The notes under the pieces: generated by a model
What the model was told of the DNA's origin: nothing
What the model saw: the letters and a program-made list of their open reading frames with translations, nothing else
The model's database searches: none
Source: a virus
DNA length: 35,641 nucleotides
Reading direction: 5' to 3' (one strand)
UHGV virus genome: UHGV-0194711
Made by a program: the position numbers and the translations under genes
Shown here: positions 2,003 through 35,641 of the stretch, piece after piece
Layout of the letters: every line of letters starts with the position of its first letter
How positions within the stretch are numbered: position 1 is the stretch's first letter

Positions 2003-4522
2003 TCATGAATTAAAAGGAACAACATAATCAAAAGTACACTGGAGAGTGAAATCAAAAGTACCAGCTGCTTGAGAATATATTTCTTGGGCTGACGATTTAA
2101 TAATCGTCATTTGATTTGTCCCAGCAGGAACAAGCGGCATAACTAAAACCCCTGTAGCCGTACTAAGAATTATGCTTCCTTTAGACCCACCCTCCTGTAT
2201 AGAAGCGGCTGTAAAAGGAAGACCACTAATTACTATGGCGCCCGCAGTGCTAACCAGTAAAGAGGTTGATCTGACCCTTATATCGCAACGAACAACATCA
2301 CCAAACCGACGGTAAATTCCAATAATGGATGATGGTATTACGCTTGCGCCGCCAATTGTAATAGTTGGTGCGAATGTGCCATAAAGATACTTAAACTGAG
2401 CAGCATTACCACCGGGAAAAGCTATTGGCGGCATATAGGCATCATTTCGATTAAAAACATACTTATCGGATAAATTTGTTCCGTTTAACTCCTGAAGACC
2501 GAAAAGACGATAGTTTGAATTATCTCCAAGCTTTCTTTGAGCAACTATATTCTCACCGGCACCGATTCTTGTGCCGTTAAATTCATTAACTGGGGCAGCC
2601 TGAACCGCGCCACCTTTTACAATATCAAGGGCGAAAATATTTCCTCTTGTTGCCATCGCTGGAAATGTTGAAAGAGATGGTTCGTAGGGATCAACATTAT
2701 TAACATTAAATCTATTTCCAGCAACATCACCAAGGCCATACTTGATGATTCCTACCCTTTCCAGTATAAGAGTCCTTATTTTACTGTTACCAACATATGA
2801 TTTAAATCCGTCAACGAATTGAGCAGAGTGGTAGAATGGCGTTCTTGGAGACCACAGCACTTTAGCCTCACCAATATTGCAATGCAATATCTCCCTTCCC
2901 GGAAGTGAAATAATAGTTCTTGCGCGCCCAGCTATACCTCTATAGGTATCAACTGGGTAAACCCCATTCTGCTGATTATTTGACAACCGACCACCGCTGG
3001 CCGTAGGCAAGCAGTTTGCAGACTTGAAAACATACGTATCAAACCAAGTGTCAAGAGCGGCATATGCTGGATGTGTCCAGTCCATGCCGGTATCACCATA
3101 ATAATGAAACTTGTCTACATGGTACGAATCATTCCATCCCGCCCGATGAATATCTGATGCCGGGTACGGCGGAAGGTACTGAGACGCGTATGCATGATTT
3201 CTCGTTAGCCAGCGCCCGCCAAAAACAGGGCCTGTAATATTATACCAATATAATGTCAGCCCAGTTTGCGCCAGAGAATCAGATCCTTGATAACAAGCAG
3301 GAATGGCACACCCTGAGTACATCATATTATTTTCTACACAGCGGTTTACAGTCCCGTCTACCCATTGCCCAATAAAGAATCCGCTAATCCTGAAATCAGA
3401 AAGGTGATACTTTATGTATTGATCTGGTCCGCTGTCACCTGCGATGTATAGACCCATGGAAGATGTATGATCCCATGGTCCCGCAGTTTTTGAAAAATTA
3501 CCAATAATCCCACAATTGTGTTGGTTTTCACCAACAATCATTGAATCATCATAAACACGCAGTGCTGCTTTTGCCTTAACTGGTATTTCAGGAGCAATAT
3601 TTGAATCACCGTTCCCTATCCACCCTGGGTATACAGTCCCATCGTCGAATGGCAAATTAAACTCTATCGGTGAAGATATGCACGGATACATTTTAGTTAA
3701 ATATACCGGAAGGTTATTAGCTTTTCCGTAATCTATAGCTGCCTGTAGAAATTTAGTTGCATCAGCAGTGATGCCGTGAATATATCTTTCACCATTAATC
3801 CTTATCATTTCAGGGGTTACGTATTTTATTGCATCTTCAACGGTGCCTCCAGTAAGAACCCCTATATGCCCGCTACCTGTCGGTTTGGCATACTCAATCA
3901 TTACATCTGCTGCACTTCCACTCGAAGGCAATACCATCAATGGATTGCCATTATTATCCATTGCAACGATTTTATTTTTTCGTTCTGCAATGGAAGGTAA
4001 CGGTGTGATGCTAGACTCCGGAACGCGTAGAGTACGAGCTAGATTAATTTTTCCATTTTCAATTACAAATTTTTTAGTAGCTGCATCCTGATCGTTAACT
4101 GGATCGGCCAGATTTGCTATCCGGTAGCCGTTAGCGTTGAAAGGTCCACCGCCGAACAGCGGGCGACTTAGGGCCACTCCGAGATAAATAAACGCGCGCT
4201 GAATAGCCATCCAGAGACGGTCAAAATCTTTGTTAACTGTATCGGCCAGCAGGTCGCCGTTGTCCTGGTAATCAGTGAGCCTGTAAGTCGGCGTTACACG
4301 TTCAAAAATGACTGTAGCGCCATTGGCCGGCGCGGTCAGAAAAGTAACTTCGCCACCGCCAGTATTACCCACACCAGACACTGTATAGCCGGACGTTACT
4401 TCGTTGCCGTTGATTGTGACCTGAATATCGCTGGCGCTGATCAGGTAAAACTCATAGGCAAAGACAGTCGTCAGCCCGTTGGCGGTATAGATGTTATAGG
4501 GTGTCTGGTTCGGTACCGACAT
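2003..4522 (-). CDS. Tailspike / tail fibre protein with T7 gp17-like N-terminal adaptor and divergent low-GC receptor-binding (likely depolymerase) body
   Basis: 839 aa. N-terminal ~150 aa carry the GYRIANLADPVNDQDAATKKFV motif, similar to T7 gp17 (GRRIVNLANAVDDRDAVPFGQL). The remainder is Gly/Asn/Tyr-rich with GC dropping markedly after ~nt 4100. Confidence 0.8.
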   Translation of the reverse strand: MSVPNQTPYNIYTANGLTTVFAYEFYLISASDIQVTINGNEVTSGYTVSGVGNTGGGEVTFLTAPANGATVIFERVTPTYRLTDYQDNGDLLADTVNKDFDRLWMAIQRAFIYLGVALSRPLFGGGPFNANGYRIANLADPVNDQDAATKKFVIENGKINLARTLRVPESSITPLPSIAERKNKIVAMDNNGNPLMVLPSSGSAADVMIEYAKPTGSGHIGVLTGGTVEDAIKYVTPEMIRINGERYIHGITADATKFLQAAIDYGKANNLPVYLTKMYPCISSPIEFNLPFDDGTVYPGWIGNGDSNIAPEIPVKAKAALRVYDDSMIVGENQHNCGIIGNFSKTAGPWDHTSSMGLYIAGDSGPDQYIKYHLSDFRISGFFIGQWVDGTVNRCVENNMMYSGCAIPACYQGSDSLAQTGLTLYWYNITGPVFGGRWLTRNHAYASQYLPPYPASDIHRAGWNDSYHVDKFHYYGDTGMDWTHPAYAALDTWFDTYVFKSANCLPTASGGRLSNNQQNGVYPVDTYRGIAGRARTIISLPGREILHCNIGEAKVLWSPRTPFYHSAQFVDGFKSYVGNSKIRTLILERVGIIKYGLGDVAGNRFNVNNVDPYEPSLSTFPAMATRGNIFALDIVKGGAVQAAPVNEFNGTRIGAGENIVAQRKLGDNSNYRLFGLQELNGTNLSDKYVFNRNDAYMPPIAFPGGNAAQFKYLYGTFAPTITIGGASVIPSSIIGIYRRFGDVVRCDIRVRSTSLLVSTAGAIVISGLPFTAASIQEGGSKGSIILSTATGVLVMPLVPAGTNQMTIIKSSAQEIYSQAAGTFDFTLQCTFDYVVPFNS

Positions 4523-15635: not shown

Positions 15636-16198
15636 CAGAACCTCGATTCATAAGTTGGATAGCCGTCCAGCGTTTCCGGCGGTTCTTCCTGTCCGTCGAT
15701 AGATTTGGCCTGGCGAAGAAGGAATGCAGCTTCCTGCGTCAGACTGTCGCGCAGACTCGCGGAGCCGGTGACGGCGTACGCCAGCTTTGCGGCCATGAAC
15801 GCTTCGGCCAGATTGACCAGCGACGAATCCCACGTCGATTCATCCTCGTTACGAAACAGGTAGCGCAGATAAATTACGTTCTGATTCGCCAGCAGGCGGT
15901 TTCCTTCAACGCGGTACCCGATATCCTCATACTCACGGCCAACGGACAGGATCCGGATTAAATCGCCCGGCAGCGGGAACTGGTAGCCGAAACCAAACGC
16001 GGGCGCGGTGCTGGACGGTGAGAGCACGACGCGTTTTACCGCGCAGTTCCATGGATGTTTTCGCAGCAGGTCATTGCGTACGGTAGGGTAAATATTGGAG
16101 CACAGGCGGGCGTGTTCGGTCGCTTCGTCGAAGCTGTTAATGGGATGAGCGCCGAGCGCCAGCAGTACGTTAGAACAGATAGAGATACTGGAAGCCAT
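15635..16198 (-). CDS. Tail tubular protein A (T7 gp11-position)
   Basis: 187 aa, directly after the capsid terminator and before tubular B. Positional and size analogy to T7 gp11 (196 aa); sequence similarity not obvious by eye. Confidence 0.55.
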   Translation of the reverse strand: MASSISICSNVLLALGAHPINSFDEATEHARLCSNIYPTVRNDLLRKHPWNCAVKRVVLSPSSTAPAFGFGYQFPLPGDLIRILSVGREYEDIGYRVEGNRLLANQNVIYLRYLFRNEDESTWDSSLVNLAEAFMAAKLAYAVTGSASLRDSLTQEAAFLLRQAKSIDGQEEPPETLDGYPTYESRF

Positions 16199-16213
16199 AG
16201 CCTTACCTCAGAT

Positions 16214-16241
16214 GAAAAAAGGCCGGGAGGGATCCCCCGGC
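16214..16241 (-). terminator. Rho-independent terminator immediately downstream of the major capsid gene (analogous to T7 T-phi)
   Basis: On the transcribed strand GCCGGGGGATCCCTCCCGGCC hairpin followed by TTTTTT; located between capsid stop and tubular A start. Confidence 0.6.
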
Positions 16242-16257
16242 AAAGGTACCAGCGGCT

Positions 16258-17163
16258 TTATGCTACAAAATCGATGGCAACGACTTTTTTCTCGTTGGCG
16301 CGGCCAGCGCCATAGGACGCATCAACGGAAATCTGGATGGTGTTATTTTTATCGCGACGCGGGCCGATATCGACGTTGTACTCAGCGCCGGTACCGAAAT
16401 GCACAGCGGACTTACACCAGGCGGCGGCGGTTTTGGTGGTGACGTTTTCGGCAGTGGCAGAATCCAGCTTCTCGTATGCCAGCCAGTTAAAGCCCAGCCA
16501 TTTAGACGACACCGAACCTTCCTGAAGCATTTTCACCGCCATAAAGTCGGCGCTGGTCAGCGTGGTATCGCTGAGGATCTGCGTCAGCATGTCGGCGTTG
16601 TACGTCATGTACAGCTCTTCGCCGTTCTGCTCGTCACATTCGTTACGGCGGAACATCGCTTTTGCTGCGATCAGTTTGGCTTTGGTCATGCCAGTACCGC
16701 CAGCAACGATTTTCTGCGAGGCCGGGAGGGTAACGGATGCATACGCGCCGTTGTTCTCAGTCTTACGCAGTACCGCATCGAGCAGCGCGCGGTAAATTAC
16801 ATCGTCTTTTTTGCGGTTGGCGGCGGACAGGGTGAGCTGCAAATACGGCCCCTGCGGGTCGGCAATCAGCTTGCGCAGGTCGCGTTTCTCGACCGGGACG
16901 AAAACGCCGTAGTCGGCCATCAGCGCATTACGGGTACCGGCTTCCGGAACATCCCAGACGGTATCACCGAAACGCGTGGTGATCTGGTTCATCTCAATGG
17001 TACCCATATCGTTGATGGTGAACGACGCACCGGTGATGCTGCCACGGTCATGGACAGCCGCTTGCAGGCGCGAATCCTTTTGCTGTGCAGCAATTTCGAA
17101 AGAATCATGAAACTGCGTAACAAACGCAGCGGTGATCATGTTCTTGTTTGCATCAAATGACAT
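16258..17163 (-). CDS. Major capsid protein
   Basis: Start at MSFDANKN (ATG 17163 with GGAG RBS); ~300 aa; position after scaffold and before T-phi-like terminator; abundant-protein composition. Confidence 0.7.
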   Translation of the reverse strand: MSFDANKNMITAAFVTQFHDSFEIAAQQKDSRLQAAVHDRGSITGASFTINDMGTIEMNQITTRFGDTVWDVPEAGTRNALMADYGVFVPVEKRDLRKLIADPQGPYLQLTLSAANRKKDDVIYRALLDAVLRKTENNGAYASVTLPASQKIVAGGTGMTKAKLIAAKAMFRRNECDEQNGEELYMTYNADMLTQILSDTTLTSADFMAVKMLQEGSVSSKWLGFNWLAYEKLDSATAENVTTKTAAAWCKSAVHFGTGAEYNVDIGPRRDKNNTIQISVDASYGAGRANEKKVVAIDFVA

Positions 17164-17303
17164 AAAAATCACTCCAGTAAAAAATCGCCTGCGGGGTGTC
17201 GGTTTCCCGGCCCAAATCTGCACAATGCGGTTGGCGCTGGCGCATTGCGGGAGAAATCAGGTATCCGGCGTCCCCGCCGGGCTGGTTATGGAGTGATTGT
17301 TAT

Positions 17304-17319
17304 CGAGGTGCGCGGTCGG
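17304..17319. promoter_or_regulatory. Copy D of recurring inverted-repeat motif GGTCGGAATCCCGACC, ~140 bp upstream of capsid start
   Basis: Same core and flank type as copy B; sits between the moron terminator and the capsid gene, where the strong phi10 promoter lies in T7. Confidence 0.5.
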
Positions 17320-17330
17320 AATCCCGACCA

Positions 17331-17358
17331 AATAAAAAAGCCAGCGGGTTAGGCTGGC
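17331..17358 (-). terminator. Rho-independent terminator after the 138-aa moron gene
   Basis: Transcribed strand GCCAGCCTAACCCGCTGGC hairpin followed by TTTTTTATTT. Confidence 0.6.
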
Positions 17359-17382
17359 TTCTGGTTGTGACTGGTCACGGTG

Positions 17383-17799
17383 TTACTTGTTATTACAGGC
17401 GCCCTGGCCGGAGTAGCAGTTTTCACACATGCGCTCATCGGTACACTGCTCACTGAGCTTTTGTTTCAGCAGGTAACCTTCCAGCATCCAAATCTTGTTA
17501 ACCGCATTCTCGCGGGCAATCTTGCGACCGATCTCCGGGTCGAAGTTTTGCGGGCTGGCGCAGGCGCTTTCGCCCGTGACGGTGAAGCCGTTGTGCAGCA
17601 CCAGAACACAAATCGTCAGCAGGTTCAGCGCTGGGCTGCAATCGTCCATTGCCGACTTATCAGGCCAGCCCGCCTGAACCGCTTCGCCGACGTTGAGATA
17701 ATGGCACTCTTTGATAACGCTCTCGATATGATCAGGCGTAACGCGCGGCGCGGTTAAGCCTTTAGCCTGAATTTGCTGCTCGATATCTTTGTCGCTCAT
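17383..17799 (-). CDS. Hypothetical Cys-rich protein (moron inserted between scaffold and capsid genes)
   Basis: 138 aa; own conserved TIR (GAGGAAAGACCAATG) and own terminator; C-terminal CxxC...C cluster (CTDERMCENCYSGQGAC). Confidence 0.6.
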   Translation of the reverse strand: MSDKDIEQQIQAKGLTAPRVTPDHIESVIKECHYLNVGEAVQAGWPDKSAMDDCSPALNLLTICVLVLHNGFTVTGESACASPQNFDPEIGRKIARENAVNKIWMLEGYLLKQKLSEQCTDERMCENCYSGQGACNNK

Positions 17800-17832
17800 T
17801 GGTCTTTCCTCTGGTTAGGTTGTCGTGACATG

Positions 17833-18681
17833 TCACGCTACAGTTTGATCACCGTAACGCTTCTGGTAGTACGCGCGAACCCGGGCGGAAACGTTCTCAT
17901 GGTCGGCGTGTTTAGGATCCATGTAGGCCGGGGACTTCATCAGGTCACGGATTGATTGCTGTTCTTCGAGATTCACATCGCCGCCCGCCGGCGCATCCTC
18001 CTGCATTTCAGCGCCGATTTTCGCCAGCATGCGGATCACCATCGGGTTATTGCCGATTTCATCCATGCGCCCTTTGTCGCCGTCATCTGCCAGAGAGTTA
18101 AATGCCCGGAAAGCCAGACCGATGTTTTTATTAAACTCGGCGTCAGTTTTCCACGTCTCGCGCAGCTGCGTGGCGGCGGCTTCCGAATCCAGCGCCGCAG
18201 CACCGTTAACCAGTTCGGGGGCCAGCTGTGCATATTCGCCCAGGATGAAACCCATCTGATCGTTGGTGATGCCTTTGGCATGAGCCGATTTCATGAAGGA
18301 TTGCATGCGCGGGTCGGCTTTGAATTCGTCCCACTTAAAACCCTCGACCTCTACCTTTGGCGCATACTCATCAGCCGTTTTCGGCGGCGTGTCGCCGCTG
18401 CCCATGCGCTTTTCAAGGTGCGTGTAAGCATCCGCCAGTTTGCGGGCTGAGCCTTCAACGTTGAGTTTTCCGTCATCGCCCATAACGCGGTATTTTTCAG
18501 GTAGCCAGTCATCCGCGCCTTGTTCGCCCGCGCCGGTGCTGAGTAGCGAAGTACCAGCAGGAGTACCGCCGCCCGGATTTTGAGTACCATCGCTATTACC
18601 AGCATCATCCCCTCCTGCGTTACCCGCTGGCGCTTCTGCACCTGTTTCGGTGTTCATGAATAAGTGTTTAAACTTCCACAT
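17833..18681 (-). CDS. Capsid assembly (scaffolding) protein (T7 gp9-like)
   Basis: 282 aa, highly acidic, Gly/Ala-rich N-terminus, between portal and capsid genes. Confidence 0.65.
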   Translation of the reverse strand: MWKFKHLFMNTETGAEAPAGNAGGDDAGNSDGTQNPGGGTPAGTSLLSTGAGEQGADDWLPEKYRVMGDDGKLNVEGSARKLADAYTHLEKRMGSGDTPPKTADEYAPKVEVEGFKWDEFKADPRMQSFMKSAHAKGITNDQMGFILGEYAQLAPELVNGAAALDSEAAATQLRETWKTDAEFNKNIGLAFRAFNSLADDGDKGRMDEIGNNPMVIRMLAKIGAEMQEDAPAGGDVNLEEQQSIRDLMKSPAYMDPKHADHENVSARVRAYYQKRYGDQTVA

Positions 18682-18901
18682 CGTCGTTTACTCCGTCTGC
18701 TTTGTTGATTTGCATCAGAATGAAATCGAGCACGGAACGCTGTCCGGCCCGGTAACAGGTTTCCCGGTCGCCTTCGGTACCGCCTTTGACATACGCCTCA
18801 CGCCCGAAGCGGCGCGTTAATTCGTCCAGCACCTGCGGCCCGCCGGGCATCTCCTCGAAAATGCGCCGGTAGTCTTCAGGGGTTACGTCTTTTTTGATCA
18901 T
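18668..18901 (-). CDS. Hypothetical small protein between portal and scaffold genes
   Basis: 77 aa ORF with start overlapping the portal stop and end overlapping the scaffold start; protein-like composition. Confidence 0.4.
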   Translation of the reverse strand: MIKKDVTPEDYRRIFEEMPGGPQVLDELTRRFGREAYVKGGTEGDRETCYRAGQRSVLDFILMQINKADGVNDDVEV

Positions 18902-20523
18902 TGGTTGCCCGCCAGTCGTTGTCCCATAATTGCGCCTGCTGCCTGCCCTGCTGCGCCGGCGGCTTCCGTCCCGGCCTGCATCAGCAACTGCTGTTGCGCC
19001 TGCTGCTGTTGCATCTGCTGGCGCTGCTGTCGAAGTTGCTCGACCGCATCAGCGGAACGCATAACTTTTGCCGGAACGCCAAGAGCCTCGCCGACAACCT
19101 TGCTCGCCTCGTCGCTGTCCATGTTGTCCAGTACATCCGGGTACGCCTGCGCCAGCTGCATGATGTTCTGGCCGTATCGCTCGATGGCGGTCACATCTTC
19201 CAGCTTCTGCGCACGGGCCAGCGGGGAGATATAACGCACGTTGAAATTGGCGCTCTGGAGGCTCTCGGGAGCGGGAGGAAAAACGCCAGCGCGGAACGCA
19301 ATACCGAAGCAGCGCTCCACCAGCGGTTGCAGGTATTCAGCCTGGAATCGTCCATAGACCGGGCCAAGCAACTGGCGGATCAGCGCGACACGCACATGCA
19401 CTTCGGTAGCAGTCATTGCCGGGCCGTCCTGCGGTTGCAACTGATCGGCCATCATGATTTTGCGAATGGAAGCCTGCAGGCGCTGTTCAGCGGTAAACGC
19501 CACGTTGAAATCTGCGCCGGTGAGCAAAGGTTTCATGCTTTCGGTGCTGTTCGCCACGATGACGCGGCGCGGGCCAACTTTTACCGTTCGCGGGTTGAGC
19601 ACGCCGTCATCCTCAGCAATCCACATACCGGAGATAGCCAGATCCTGCGCGGCCTTCTCCATGCGTTTGGTTTCGTTCAGCTCTTTGCAGTCCGGCAGCG
19701 CGTCGTATACCGGGCCGATACCGTAGGAGCCGCCGGGAATTTTCATCCAGCGCGGGACGCACACAGGGAATTCGTGATAGCCGGATTCACGCACGATACG
19801 CTTGCCGTTCACTTCCACGTTGAACGATGCAAAACGCATATTGCGCGCCAGCTTCGCATTTACGGCGTAGGTATCACGCGGGAAAATGCAGTGCAGGAAA
19901 TCAAATTTATCGTCAGGTTTGTTTTTTGCAGCATCGCGGATTTTTTCGCTTACCTTGTCCGCGCCGAATTCTTTCACTGCCTGTTCAGCGGTGAGCTGAT
20001 AGCACCGATAAATCGTGTCCACGATGCCATCCCGGCGGGTGGAAGTCACAAAGCATTGCGCCAGCGGCCACTGCTGGAAGGTAAATCCTCCCTCTTCCTT
20101 GTCCTCATCGACGTACAGCGCGAACCAGCCAGCACAGACCACATCGAGATTGGCCTCGTACCCTTCCGCGTCAAAGTTAGCGGCGTGGATATTTTCCCAT
20201 ACCAGCGTTGCACAGGTGGACAACCACGCCTTAGCGTCATCAGGAAGTAATTCGCTGTCGAGGTTCAGCCATTGAGCATTCGCCGGGGTCATCCCTGACA
20301 TAAGCGCGGACGCCAGCATACGGGCGCTGTCGGTGGCTGTGCCGTCCAGCAGCTTCGCAACCTTGTGCTTTGCGCTCTGTGCGTCCAGCACCTCAGACGA
20401 AAACCCGGCCCCGCGCAGCGGATAGGTGTAGTCGTAGCATTCCCGCCAGACGCTTTCGTGCACCTGGCGATTTGCTTTCAGCGTGTCAGCGCGCCTGATT
20501 AACCGGCTGGCGAGTTGATCCAT
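18898..20523 (-). CDS. Portal (head-to-tail connector) protein, T7 gp8-like
   Basis: 541 aa (T7 gp8 is 536 aa); Gln-rich C-terminal tail (QQRQQMQQQQAQQQ) as in T7 portal; precedes scaffold and capsid. Confidence 0.8.
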   Translation of the reverse strand: MDQLASRLIRRADTLKANRQVHESVWRECYDYTYPLRGAGFSSEVLDAQSAKHKVAKLLDGTATDSARMLASALMSGMTPANAQWLNLDSELLPDDAKAWLSTCATLVWENIHAANFDAEGYEANLDVVCAGWFALYVDEDKEEGGFTFQQWPLAQCFVTSTRRDGIVDTIYRCYQLTAEQAVKEFGADKVSEKIRDAAKNKPDDKFDFLHCIFPRDTYAVNAKLARNMRFASFNVEVNGKRIVRESGYHEFPVCVPRWMKIPGGSYGIGPVYDALPDCKELNETKRMEKAAQDLAISGMWIAEDDGVLNPRTVKVGPRRVIVANSTESMKPLLTGADFNVAFTAEQRLQASIRKIMMADQLQPQDGPAMTATEVHVRVALIRQLLGPVYGRFQAEYLQPLVERCFGIAFRAGVFPPAPESLQSANFNVRYISPLARAQKLEDVTAIERYGQNIMQLAQAYPDVLDNMDSDEASKVVGEALGVPAKVMRSADAVEQLRQQRQQMQQQQAQQQLLMQAGTEAAGAAGQAAGAIMGQRLAGNQ

Positions 20524-30706: not shown

Positions 30707-31030
30707 ATGGAAGCGCTTACCATCCCCGTAACTATTTACGTTATGGCCACAACCAAACCATATCTACCAACGTCTTATCACTCATTCACCTGTGACATGT
30801 CACAGCAATACCCTGATCTGTATGTCCTCGTTACTACCAAAACGGTAGAGGTTGCCATTCCAGCTTTAGAGCCAATCGACATTATTGGTATGCAGGTTAA
30901 TGCCCTTCGTGCGAAGAAAGAGAAAATCTCTGCCGAAGCAAAGAAGGAGCTGGGTGTTATTGAAGACCAGATTCAGCAGCTGCTGTGCATCGATCACTCT
31001 CCAATTGAAGAAAGCGACGTACCGTTTTAA
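30707..31030 (+). CDS. Hypothetical protein (first gene of early-left operon)
   Basis: 107 aa; AAGGAG RBS before ATG. Confidence 0.5.
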   Translation: MEALTIPVTIYVMATTKPYLPTSYHSFTCDMSQQYPDLYVLVTTKTVEVAIPALEPIDIIGMQVNALRAKKEKISAEAKKELGVIEDQIQQLLCIDHSPIEESDVPF

Positions 31031-34187: not shown

Positions 34188-34433
34188 ATGAGACACGATC
34201 ACGACATCATCACCAGAGAGGAAATGATCGAACTGACGGGGACCCCACTTAAATCGAGGCAGTGTGAAGCGCTACGTCGGGCCGGTGTCTTTTTCATGGA
34301 AAGGGCAGACGGCCATCCTAAAACGACGTGGGGCCATTTCCTGAACCCGATTAAATACCGCAACCAGCAGGAAGAGACGGTGCGGGAGGAAGAACCAGAC
34401 TTCGGAGCTATCTTTAATGGCCGGAAAACGTAA
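34188..34433 (+). CDS. DUF4224-family protein (excisionase-like, upstream of integrase)
   Basis: ITREEMIELTGTPLKSRQCEALRRAGVFF matches the DUF4224 pattern typically found next to integrases; TIR GAGGAAAGACCATG variant. Confidence 0.55.
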   Translation: MRHDHDIITREEMIELTGTPLKSRQCEALRRAGVFFMERADGHPKTTWGHFLNPIKYRNQQEETVREEEPDFGAIFNGRKT

Positions 34434-35433
34434 GAACCCCGCTGATAACTGGATGCCGCCCCGCGTGTATCGCGGTAAGGCGGCGTATGAATTCAGGAAT
34501 AAAGATAACAAGGCTATCAGGCTATGTGCGCTCTCCGAGCCTCAATCAGCTGTATGGCTGGCATATGAAAAAGCCATGGGAGAAGAAGTCGAGCGCAAGA
34601 CGTTTCAGGCTCTGGCCGATCAATTCATGTCTTCCCCTGACTGGCAGGATTTAGCGGCAGAAACCCGCAAAGACTACACGAAATACGCAGGCAAAGTGTT
34701 GCCGGTGTTCGGGAAGGTTAACCCCGATAAAATTAAACCGGAACACATCCGGCGCTATATGGATCAGCGTGGCATGGCCAGTAAAACGCAGGCCAACCGG
34801 GAAAAGAGTTTTCTTTCTCGGGTATTCCGCTGGGGTTATGAGCGGGGTTACGTCCAGCATAATCCCTGTCAGGGCGTTAAGAAGTTCAAAGAGGCAGCCC
34901 GGGAGCGTTACATCACCGACGAAGAATACAAAGCGGTTTACGATGTTGCTCCAGACGTAGTTCGCGCCACCATGGAAATCGCTTATTTGTGTCTGGCCAG
35001 ACAAAGCGATGTGCTGGCTTTGACTGAAGACCAGATACGCGAAACCGGGATCTTTATCCGCCAGGGGAAAACAGGCGTGAAGCAAATCAAAGCATGGTCG
35101 CCACGCCTGCGCGCCGCTGTCGCCCTCGCCCGTTCCCTGCCGTTAAAGCCGGGTATCCGTAGCCTGTTTGTCATTCACCAGACCAGCGGCAGCAAATACA
35201 CCCGTGACGGTTTTAATTCACGCTGGCGCGACGCGAAAATCGCAGCGCAGGAAAAGAACCCACACCTGCAGATAGATTTCACTTTCCACGATCTGAAAGC
35301 GAAAGGTGTCTCTGATCTGGAAGGAAGCCTCGAGGAGAAACAGGCGATTTCAGGCCATAAGAATTCGAGACAAACGGCGATTTACGACAGGAAAACTAAA
35401 ATTGTGCCGGTTGTTGGTGGTCAGAAAAAATGA
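34417..35433 (+). CDS. int: Tyrosine recombinase / phage integrase
   Basis: 338 aa; C-terminal catalytic region HDLKAKG...GHKNSRQTAIYDR (H-x-x-R and Tyr); adjacent to tRNA att site. Confidence 0.9.
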   Translation: MAGKRKNPADNWMPPRVYRGKAAYEFRNKDNKAIRLCALSEPQSAVWLAYEKAMGEEVERKTFQALADQFMSSPDWQDLAAETRKDYTKYAGKVLPVFGKVNPDKIKPEHIRRYMDQRGMASKTQANREKSFLSRVFRWGYERGYVQHNPCQGVKKFKEAARERYITDEEYKAVYDVAPDVVRATMEIAYLCLARQSDVLALTEDQIRETGIFIRQGKTGVKQIKAWSPRLRAAVALARSLPLKPGIRSLFVIHQTSGSKYTRDGFNSRWRDAKIAAQEKNPHLQIDFTFHDLKAKGVSDLEGSLEEKQAISGHKNSRQTAIYDRKTKIVPVVGGQKK

Positions 35434-35490: not shown

Positions 35491-35619
35491 CAGATACAAA
35501 AAAACCACCCGTAGGTGGTTTCACGACACTGCTTATTGCTTTGATTATTCTGCTTTATCCCAATGGTACCCGGAGCGGGACTTGAACCCGCACAGCGCGA
35601 ACGCCGAGGGATTTTAAAT
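35491..35619. repeat. Right attachment-site direct repeat (attR), including terminator hairpin and tRNA-Leu 3' half
   Basis: Near-identical to 156-283; preceded by tandem CATCTTCGGA repeats (35459-35480) that may be integrase arm sites. Confidence 0.85.
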
Positions 35620-35641
35620 CCCTTGTGTCTACCGATTCCAC
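35564..35641 (-). tRNA. leuZ: tRNA-Leu (anticodon UAA), truncated by the window edge (5' ~9 nt outside)
   Basis: Reverse complement reads ...GTGGAATCGGTAGACACAAGGGATTTAAAATCCCTCGGCGTTCGCGCTGTGCGGGTTCAAGTCCCGCTCCGGGTACCA; anticodon loop tTTAAaa gives UAA; matches enterobacterial leuZ from memory. Confidence 0.85.

Follow-up and report, generated by a model that had tools for sequence, protein, structure and literature searches.

We examined a 35,641-nucleotide (nt) stretch of viral DNA, UHGV virus genome UHGV-0194711 (hereafter the window, meaning that whole stretch), and in particular a gene of 138 amino acids (aa) that lies on the minus strand between a scaffold-like gene and the major capsid gene. 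The window is a temperate podovirus prophage with a full podovirus structural module, whose minus-strand genes run in the order portal, Bbp19-like, scaffold-like, 138-aa open reading frame (ORF), major capsid, tail adaptor and nozzle. An earlier interpretation made from the letters of the window without database searches (the sequence-only reading) had described the 138-aa gene as an autonomous, cysteine-rich moron inserted at this junction. The ORF itself is real: it occupies 17383-17799 on the minus strand and begins with an ATG preceded ~8 nt upstream by GAGGA. An antisense ORF at 17380-17757 on the plus strand was taken as its shadow.

Features of the scaffold-capsid junction

The features listed here define the interval between the two structural genes, which is called the slot below.

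16258..17163, minus strand: major capsid protein gene, downstream flank of the slot (PF19821, E=8.5e-70; phrog_3437)
17194..17284, minus strand: conserved three-hairpin leader upstream of the capsid gene (RNAalifold), a backbone element that bounds the slot on its 3' side
17328..17362, minus strand: intrinsic terminator, AGAAGCCAGCC-TAACCCG-CTGGCTTTT followed by a U-tract; stem at 17336-17362, -14.4 kcal/mol
17367..17378, no strand assigned: palindrome copy 2, GTGACCAGTCAC, 4 nt after the stop codon of the 138-aa gene and 4 nt before the terminator stem
17383..17799, minus strand: Acb4-family (PF13876, 'Gp49 family') gene, 138 aa, span including the stop codon (ORF list, Pfam, phrog_322, 9E4W match)
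17386..17445, minus strand: C-terminal 20-residue extension with four cysteines, C119-x5-C125-x2-C128-x6-C135
17455..17742, minus strand: Acb4 core domain, residues 20-115 (Pfam envelope; alignment of 23 homologs)
17800..17823, minus strand: slot leader with Shine-Dalgarno sequence (ACAACCTAACCAGAGGAAAGACCA) before the ATG, the same before the Acb4, Acb2, Tad2-like, u54 and u190 cargos
17825..17836, no strand assigned: palindrome copy 1, GTGACATGTCAC, the 12-mer core, overlapping the scaffold stop; a backbone element
17833..18681, minus strand: scaffold-like protein gene, upstream flank of the slot, between the Bbp19-like and capsid genes (phrog_3742 and, weakly, phrog_458)

The 138-aa protein is a member of the Acb4 family

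Comparison with Pfam placed the 138-aa protein in PF13876 (Phage_gp49_66) at 115.3 bits against a cut-off of 27 (E=1.8e-33), with the profile matched over its full length (1-82). Chang et al. (PMC11722364) equate PF13876 with Acb4, the anti-CBASS 4 family, where CBASS denotes the cyclic-oligonucleotide-based antiphage signalling system. In that work the Acb4 of phage SPO1 (9E4W), the founding member, forms a tetramer that, as a sponge, holds four 3'3'-cyclic GMP-AMP (3'3'-cGAMP) molecules; 3'3'-cGAMP was bound by 8 of 8 tested homologs and cyclic di-GMP (c-di-GMP) by none, homologs from Gram-negative hosts bind cyclic di-AMP (c-di-AMP) too, and certain homologs carry extensions of unknown role. 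Published Acb4 homologs are tetramers, and Acb4 domains are frequently fused to other sponges.

A phmmer search of PDB sequences with the window protein found one protein, SPO1 Acb4, and a profile search agrees. An AlphaFold2 monomer model built from 60 homologs reached a mean predicted local distance difference test score (pLDDT) of 87.7, with elements in the order H-H-E-H-H-E-E-H, and inspection of this model reveals the Acb4 protomer fold, namely a helical N-terminus, three antiparallel strands and long C-terminal helices. When the model was compared with the PDB using Foldseek, the best 13 matches were all chains of 9E4W (probability 1.00, target template-modelling score 0.62-0.72, 26-27% identity, whole target covered); the first match outside 9E4W had an E-value of only 0.076. 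Structure prediction and fold search thus lead to Acb4 alone. Acb4 proteins are encoded by phages or prophages as small stand-alone or fused proteins, and the window protein is likewise small and encoded by a prophage. On its profile match and predicted fold, assignment of the 138-aa gene to the Acb4 family is secure, and the earlier identification as a cysteine-rich metal-binding or disulfide protein gives way to that of an Acb4-family nucleotide sponge homolog.

Relatives of the protein are common. Enterobacterales prophages are rich in homologs annotated "Gp49 family protein", and the core motif TGESACASP of the window protein is present in 352 sequences of Table S3 of Chang et al. The Acb4 core is near-invariant over dozens of genera. 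Within the alignment of 23 homologs, residues ~30-58 form a hypervariable N-terminal segment, and residues 61-113 form a highly conserved core of beta-sheet and helix. The ORF is intact, and copies 99% identical to it occur in independent contigs. The Acb4 gene is an ordinary one, already catalogued as "Gp49 family protein", and this largely explains the feature that had first drawn attention.

The junction is a slot for exchangeable cargo

A census of 99 related loci with capsids at least 85% identical, drawn from one-genome-per-species contigs and IMG/VR, yielded 86 distinct junctions (loci are given below by L numbers). Rows of the census overlap and sum to more than 86, junctions with two or three cargos being counted repeatedly.

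Empty junction: 27 of 86, 206-219 nt
Acb4: 25 of 86 distinct junctions, 2 of these with a Tad2-like gene too
Acb2/Tad1-hairpin protein: 10 of 86 (PF24729, E ~1e-17 to 1e-19)
Tad2-like protein: 8 of 86 (PF11195, E ~1e-27)
54-56-aa helical protein of no family: 5 of 86
158-190-aa family: 2 of 86
Other genes: 16 of 86, several on the opposite strand

Since 27 of the 86 junctions are empty and others hold unrelated genes in its place, the Acb4 gene is accessory cargo that interrupts the junction, as had been proposed; related prophages do not show the universal conservation, with a structural role, that would have spoken against this. At least one known nucleotide-sponge family is present in 38 of the 59 occupied junctions, and in Klebsiella pneumoniae relatives a Tad2-like gene and the same cysteine-tailed Acb4 stand in tandem. 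The slot-bearing lineage, a group of temperate podoviruses, is found in Klebsiella, Enterobacter, Escherichia, Serratia, Pectobacterium and further genera.

The same census bears on whether the protein could be a head-assembly accessory, that is, a zinc-binding scaffold partner or a capsid decoration or cement factor. The position of the gene between scaffold and capsid, where it is probably co-transcribed, and its conserved four-cysteine tail would suit such a role. Set against this, the gene is missing at 27 of 86 junctions with capsids at least 89% identical, and elsewhere unrelated Acb2 or Tad2 proteins stand in its place. In other phage types, close homologs (the cysteine-tailed form included) are encoded on the opposite strand beside terminase genes, and the predicted fold matches Acb4 only. 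We consider a role in head assembly very unlikely and retain the reading of an accessory sponge gene. In a distant relative (L022, Acinetobacter sp. TY2), an Acb4 homolog with 59% identity lies at 3972-4307, directly downstream of the capsid gene, and the scaffold match ends ~25 nt before the capsid gene.

Genes of unknown function fill about a third of the occupied slots. They comprise cargos of 54-56 aa (L245, L246, L261, L275, L286), of 158-190 aa (L011, L256) and of 74 aa (L015, from Pantoea), together with cargos on the opposite strand (L244, L249, L258, L277, L295, L301, L313); one uncharacterised slot gene has a signal peptide. Pfam scans of those that were scanned gave no significant match, and a PADLOC scan of seven of them, drawn from forward- and reverse-strand cargos, returned weak coiled-coil noise only. 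By location, these genes are candidate anti-defence or lysogen-expressed genes, and those of unknown function are good places to look for new anti-defence proteins.

Leader, terminator and upstream palindrome belong to the phage backbone

Inspection of the empty junctions reveals a common order of elements: scaffold stop, palindrome, short spacer, the same terminator as in the window, conserved leader and capsid ATG. The junction in its empty state is accordingly not the "normally tight" one that had been assumed, since its 206-219 nt hold a palindrome, a terminator and a structured leader. In the empty-junction relatives L002, L005 and L006 the palindrome and terminator are adjacent to each other, and the terminator is also kept in relatives with other cargos. 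The presence of both elements in empty junctions places the terminator and the upstream palindrome in the phage backbone. The leader GACAACYTAACCAGAGGAAAGACCA, followed by ATG or GTG, is common to unrelated forward-strand cargos, nearly all of which start at +37 from the scaffold stop, so that the translation-initiation region belongs to the slot.

These observations change how the signals around the gene are to be assigned. The sequence-only reading had given the gene a translation-initiation region, a terminator and a directly upstream palindrome of its own, and each of these elements exists: GAGGA precedes the start codon, a terminator lies at 17336-17362, and the upstream sequence is a perfect 14-nt palindrome. 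What does not hold is the ownership, as the leader is common to unrelated cargos at +37, the terminator is ancestral, and terminator and palindrome alike are found in relatives whose junctions are empty. A scan of the minus strand from 16000 to 19000 for sigma-70-like consensus sequences found no promoter, a scan that weak or activator-dependent promoters could escape, and no terminator separates the scaffold stop from the Acb4 gene. With no promoter found, and with leader, terminator and upstream palindrome all part of the slot backbone, the description of the gene as autonomous fails.

Morons of lambdoid phages, by the HK97/HK022 definition, are genes that bring a promoter and a terminator of their own and are inserted where two genes lie side by side in related phages. 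The window gene resembles them in lying between genes that are adjacent in related phages (27 of 86 junctions being empty). In contrast to them, it has no detected promoter, its terminator is ancestral and its base composition is not deviant: in a composition profile, GC content is 0.555-0.57 across the Acb4 gene and 0.54-0.58 in the flanks, with no foreign signature.

A lysogenic-conversion moron, expressed from the prophage, would buffer housekeeping c-di-AMP or c-di-GMP and so alter host physiology. The gene is indeed prophage cargo, from a family that binds cyclic dinucleotides. The absence of a promoter-like site on its strand counts against such a role, as does its embedding in the late operon in structural-gene orientation; moreover, the tested homologs avoid c-di-GMP, and Enterobacteria are reported to make no use of c-di-AMP in homeostasis. 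We therefore judge lysogenic conversion highly improbable and hold to a sponge delivered during lytic growth.

Ligand contacts and mosaicism within the gene

Alignment with SPO1 Acb4 shows three of ten ligand contacts kept in the window protein, the hydrophobic or aromatic residues F72, F86 and I90, which correspond to SPO1 F48, F62 and I66. The other seven are changed: K36 to L60, E49 to T73, V56 to C80, Y57 to A81, N63 to D87, T70 to I94 and K81 to M105. The two proteins belong to the same Pfam family, are both small phage proteins and share a predicted fold of N-terminal helices, three-stranded sheet and long C-terminal helix. They differ in that the window protein is only 26-27% identical, has its polar base-reading and phosphate contacts replaced, and carries a longer hypervariable N-terminal segment and an extra four-cysteine tail; SPO1 is moreover a lytic Bacillus phage, whereas the window is a temperate prophage of a Gram-negative host. 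With seven of the ten SPO1 contacts replaced, binding by the window protein is not guaranteed and its ligand is not secure. The same replacements are fixed throughout the enterobacterial clade, which is well represented in the characterised family, and divergent Gram-negative Acb4 homologs still bind cGAMP or c-di-AMP.

The replaced contacts are what would be seen if the gene were a passenger, neutral or in decay: a remnant Acb4 that has lost ligand binding and is kept through linkage. Such decay sits poorly with an intact ORF that recurs at 99% identity in independent contigs, with a core near-invariant over dozens of genera and four invariant tail cysteines, and with replacements that are fixed in the entire enterobacterial clade, itself heavily represented in the characterised family. 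A relic is, in our estimate, most improbable, and an active sponge is the reading carried forward.

Comparison with Klebsiella locus L038 adds a second source of variation. Its Acb4 is 96.7% identical to that of the window from ~codon 60 on, and its 5' part does not align, which indicates a recombination breakpoint inside the Acb4 gene. The breakpoint falls at window position 17621 and L038 position 4179, in agreement with the hypervariable residues 30-58 of the protein alignment. The end of the hypervariable segment adjoins the site that corresponds to the base-reading residue K36 of SPO1, and from this placement the segment may tune ligand specificity.

A cysteine tail marks a sub-clade of homologs

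Beyond the Acb4 core, a tail holds four of the eight cysteines of the protein; C119, C125, C128 and C135 all lie in the last 20 residues, which bears out the C-terminal cysteine cluster noted by the sequence-only reading. The tail cysteines are invariant in a nine-member sub-clade (P0004, P0018, P0020, P0025, P0026, P0028, P0029, P0033, P0037) in which the adjacent residues vary. These nine cysteine-tailed homologs include ones named Rahnella, Klebsiella, Cedecea, Serratia and Dickeya. Most remaining homologs stop at ~residue 118 or have unrelated tails. The tail was modelled at a pLDDT of only ~67 and has no match in Pfam or the PDB; when the PDB was searched with the tail alone, the only matches, to Rab12, were set aside as chance.

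A small zinc knuckle is plausible, though no more than a fair guess at what the tail may be; it possibly stabilises the oligomer or adds a function. This sub-clade could reveal how extensions modify sponge function. A regular-expression search for the tail motif over ~4.9 million translated residues of the fetched loci found Acb4 proteins and one other protein, the L256 cargo. The N-terminus of this 190-aa cargo, CINCFANKGPC...C, resembles the Acb4 tail CENCYSGQGAC in the pattern C-x-N-C-[FY]-x3-G-x-C, a likeness that may reflect either a shared mini-module or chance.

Proposed role as a sponge of cyclic-dinucleotide signals

Taken together, the family assignment and the census lead us to consider it likely, with good though not full confidence, that the window gene encodes an Acb4-family sponge of cyclic-dinucleotide immune signals, carried as cargo of a hypervariable slot. 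During lytic growth, the gene would be transcribed late with the portal-Bbp19-scaffold message, translated from the fixed ribosome-binding leader of the slot, and its transcript would end, at least partly, at the ancestral terminator. By analogy with characterised homologs, the protein would form a homotetramer with inter-subunit pockets, and these pockets would sequester cyclic dinucleotides stoichiometrically, the presumed ligands being CBASS products such as 3'3'-cGAMP or cUA. It would probably bind c-di-AMP too, as other Gram-negative homologs do. Through such sequestration the host effector would stay inactive.

Several points weigh against this proposal. The base-specific and phosphate contacts of SPO1 Acb4 differ in the window protein, where only three of the ten contacts are retained. 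The tail motif is absent from the published Acb4 family table (Chang et al. Table S3), and the tailed form stands outside the characterised members. If the signal arises early, expression of an immune antagonist from a late structural operon is unusual, and the window shows neither a CBASS system nor another target.

The closest parallels lie in N4-like phages. The Acb4 of coliphage N4 (Gp49, the source of the Pfam name) binds c-di-AMP at 111 nM and thereby trips the guard system PanDA; it triggers a second guard system, Panoptes, too. It belongs to the same family as the window protein, which is 46% identical over its core to the homolog of Escherichia phage vB_EcoP_PhAPEC7, presumably an N4-like phage. 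Table S3 of Chang et al. includes that homolog. The tail of N4-like Acb4 differs from that of the window protein, and the gene lies between primase-polymerase and virion RNA polymerase genes in N4-like phages, in contrast to its place between scaffold and capsid in the window.

N4-like phages have an anti-signalling hotspot with Acb4, Tad2 and Sequestin (bioRxiv 10.64898/2026.06.04.730250). With that hotspot published, the concept of a sponge hotspot is already known; what is described here lies in a different lineage and at a different position. Like the N4-like hotspot and the anti-CRISPR and anti-defence islands, the window slot is a fixed position in the backbone that takes exchangeable nucleotide-signalling inhibitors and unknown genes. 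It differs from the N4-like hotspot in being a single site inside a late structural operon of another phage lineage, with a common leader and terminator, usually occupied by 1-3 small genes and empty in about a third of relatives. That is to say, this lineage keeps one small late-operon site that collects mostly nucleotide-signal sponges.

A 12-bp palindrome recurs at the slot and beside Acb4 genes

The sequence upstream of the Acb4 gene, CGTGACATGTCACG, is a perfect 14-nt palindrome that overlaps the TGA stop of the scaffold gene, as the sequence-only reading had stated, but its span is 17824-17837 and not 17825-17838. A second copy, downstream of the Acb4 gene, had been overlooked. The third copy in the window is given here.

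30792-30803: palindrome copy 3, inside a conserved ORF (phrog_2479)

Three exact copies of GTGACNNGTCAC in the window, compared with 0.018 expected under a first-order Markov model, are a recurrence beyond chance. The STEC383 relative has a different early module and so offers no counterpart for comparing copy 3.

Copy 1 is present in the majority of the 99 related loci as well as at the empty junctions of L002, L005 and L006. The palindrome flanks the cargo on both sides in the window and in Klebsiella, lies upstream only in L004, L010 and L017, and downstream only in L011. In Rahnella L042, which has a different phage backbone, a cysteine-tailed Acb4 is followed by the palindrome and then by a different terminator, and the arrangement of stop plus palindrome also follows the Acb4 of Klebsiella L038. 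An unbiased IMG/VR sample of 80 Acb4 loci gave 56 distinct 3' contexts, 20 of which hold the exact palindrome within 75 nt of the Acb4 stop, with ~5 more at one mismatch; downstream copies mostly start 4 nt past the stop codon, and the terminator that comes next is one of several distinct kinds.

Scanning for CGTGACATGTCACA yielded at least 120 viral loci; many are plain coincidences of coding sequence, such as the N-terminus of a Q antiterminator. A recurrent pattern, seen in many unrelated enterobacterial temperate phages, is variable sequence up to the palindrome edge on one side and conserved backbone on the other, where there is either a terminator or the end of a conserved 113-aa gene beside terminase. 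Homology ends within ~5 nt of the palindrome edge in 223 of 304 locus pairs, a biased figure, as the sequences were chosen for the palindrome and the pairs are non-independent.

The E. coli matS site, bound by MatP, has the 13-bp consensus GTGAC[AG]N[CT]GTCAC, and true matS is reported absent from prophages. The phage palindrome has identical GTGAC and GTCAC half-sites but is 12 bp long with a 2-nt spacer, compared with the 3-nt spacer of matS. Identity with matS is ruled out by this spacing, all copies being of 12 bp with no 13-bp version at the sites. A literature search for GTGACATGTCAC gave no match.

As hypotheses only, the palindrome might be a microhomology or recombination boundary for cargo exchange, an operator for a protein, or an element of termination or 3'-end stability. 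A more ambitious account would make the junction a dedicated, exchangeable sponge cassette slot that is delimited or mediated by a functional palindrome, with unknown cargos acting as new inhibitors of signalling immunity and the four-cysteine tail adding a function; we find this account rather unlikely as a whole.

A conserved gene for a 113-114-aa protein lies upstream of the small terminase gene in L123 (12663-13004, minus strand) and L042 (7369-7713, minus strand). Its C-terminus carries a cysteine cluster, and by eye its N-terminus has a ribbon-helix-helix-like look. In L123 the protein ends ...GWHETKLIV and the TGA stop falls within the palindrome, and in L042 the palindrome lies beside the gene end. 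The protein is a candidate regulator or packaging factor with a possible link to the palindrome.

A conserved structured leader precedes the capsid gene

Between the terminator and the capsid ATG, a ~90-nt leader is more conserved than the surrounding coding sequence. A covariance model placed it directly upstream of the capsid gene in 28 loci, including prophages of Moraxellaceae, Orbaceae, Pseudomonas, Rhodoferax, Massilia, Roseateles, Rubrivivax, Herbaspirillum and Hydrogenophaga, of both gamma- and beta-proteobacterial hosts; the leader was seen 5' of the capsid gene in L001-L035, L163 and L202. In the leader alignment 96.2% of cells are paired, compared with a shuffled mean of 75.5%, a pairing somewhat inflated because the alignment was fitted to the model. 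Of the 22 pairs, 19 carry compensatory double changes; double-change cells number 114, compared with 28 in the shuffles. None of 500 shuffles reached the observed values, and slid controls were 22-41% paired. The leader has no match in Rfam 15.

From this pattern of pairing, the leader looks to be a cis-acting RNA for the capsid gene, and an undescribed one. As far as searches show, both the leader RNA and the 12-bp palindrome are undescribed, and they may bear on late-gene regulation and on the exchange of phage cargo. The leader occupies the spot where a T7-like promoter had earlier been expected.

[quoted passage not shown] The leader RNA is there alike with an empty slot, with Acb4 or with another cargo, Acb4 homologs are widespread in phages that lack the leader, and all tested family members bind nucleotides, each of which argues against this idea. 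We give it very little credence indeed, and nucleotide sequestration remains the preferred function.

Two loci show further non-coding sequence. In L042, a Rahnella inusitata prophage, a 630-nt non-coding stretch (3370-4000) lies upstream of the cysteine-tailed Acb4 and matches the capsid-leader model weakly (E=0.027), with a hairpin like the first of the leader. In L012 (Symbiopectobacterium purcellii), a ~200-nt AT-rich insert without an ORF (~2660-2860) separates the terminator from the capsid leader. Its flanks, a duplicated TTTGGTCGGG together with inverted repeats (TTGTTGAATAATTTAAC ... GTTAAATTATTCAACAA), suggest a miniature insertion element.

Other features of the window

Three further genes were placed in the window.

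18668-18901, minus strand: Bbp19-like gene
18898-20523, minus strand: portal gene (PF12236)
34417-35433: integrase gene

Megablast of the junction against published phages matched only the capsid part, in Yersinia phages YeP4-6, and tblastn for other sponge families elsewhere in the window found none. Rfam, searched over the whole window at gathering thresholds and over 17000-17950 at E<=1, gave no match at the junction, its one match being a truncated tRNA at the end of the window, and no complete tRNA was detected in the window by ARAGORN. The early region is of lambdoid type, with CII-like, O-like, DnaB, NinB and HNH genes. The partial tRNA, at 35567-35641 on the minus strand, is cut by the window end and adjoins the integrase gene, an arrangement that fits integration of the prophage at a tRNA gene.

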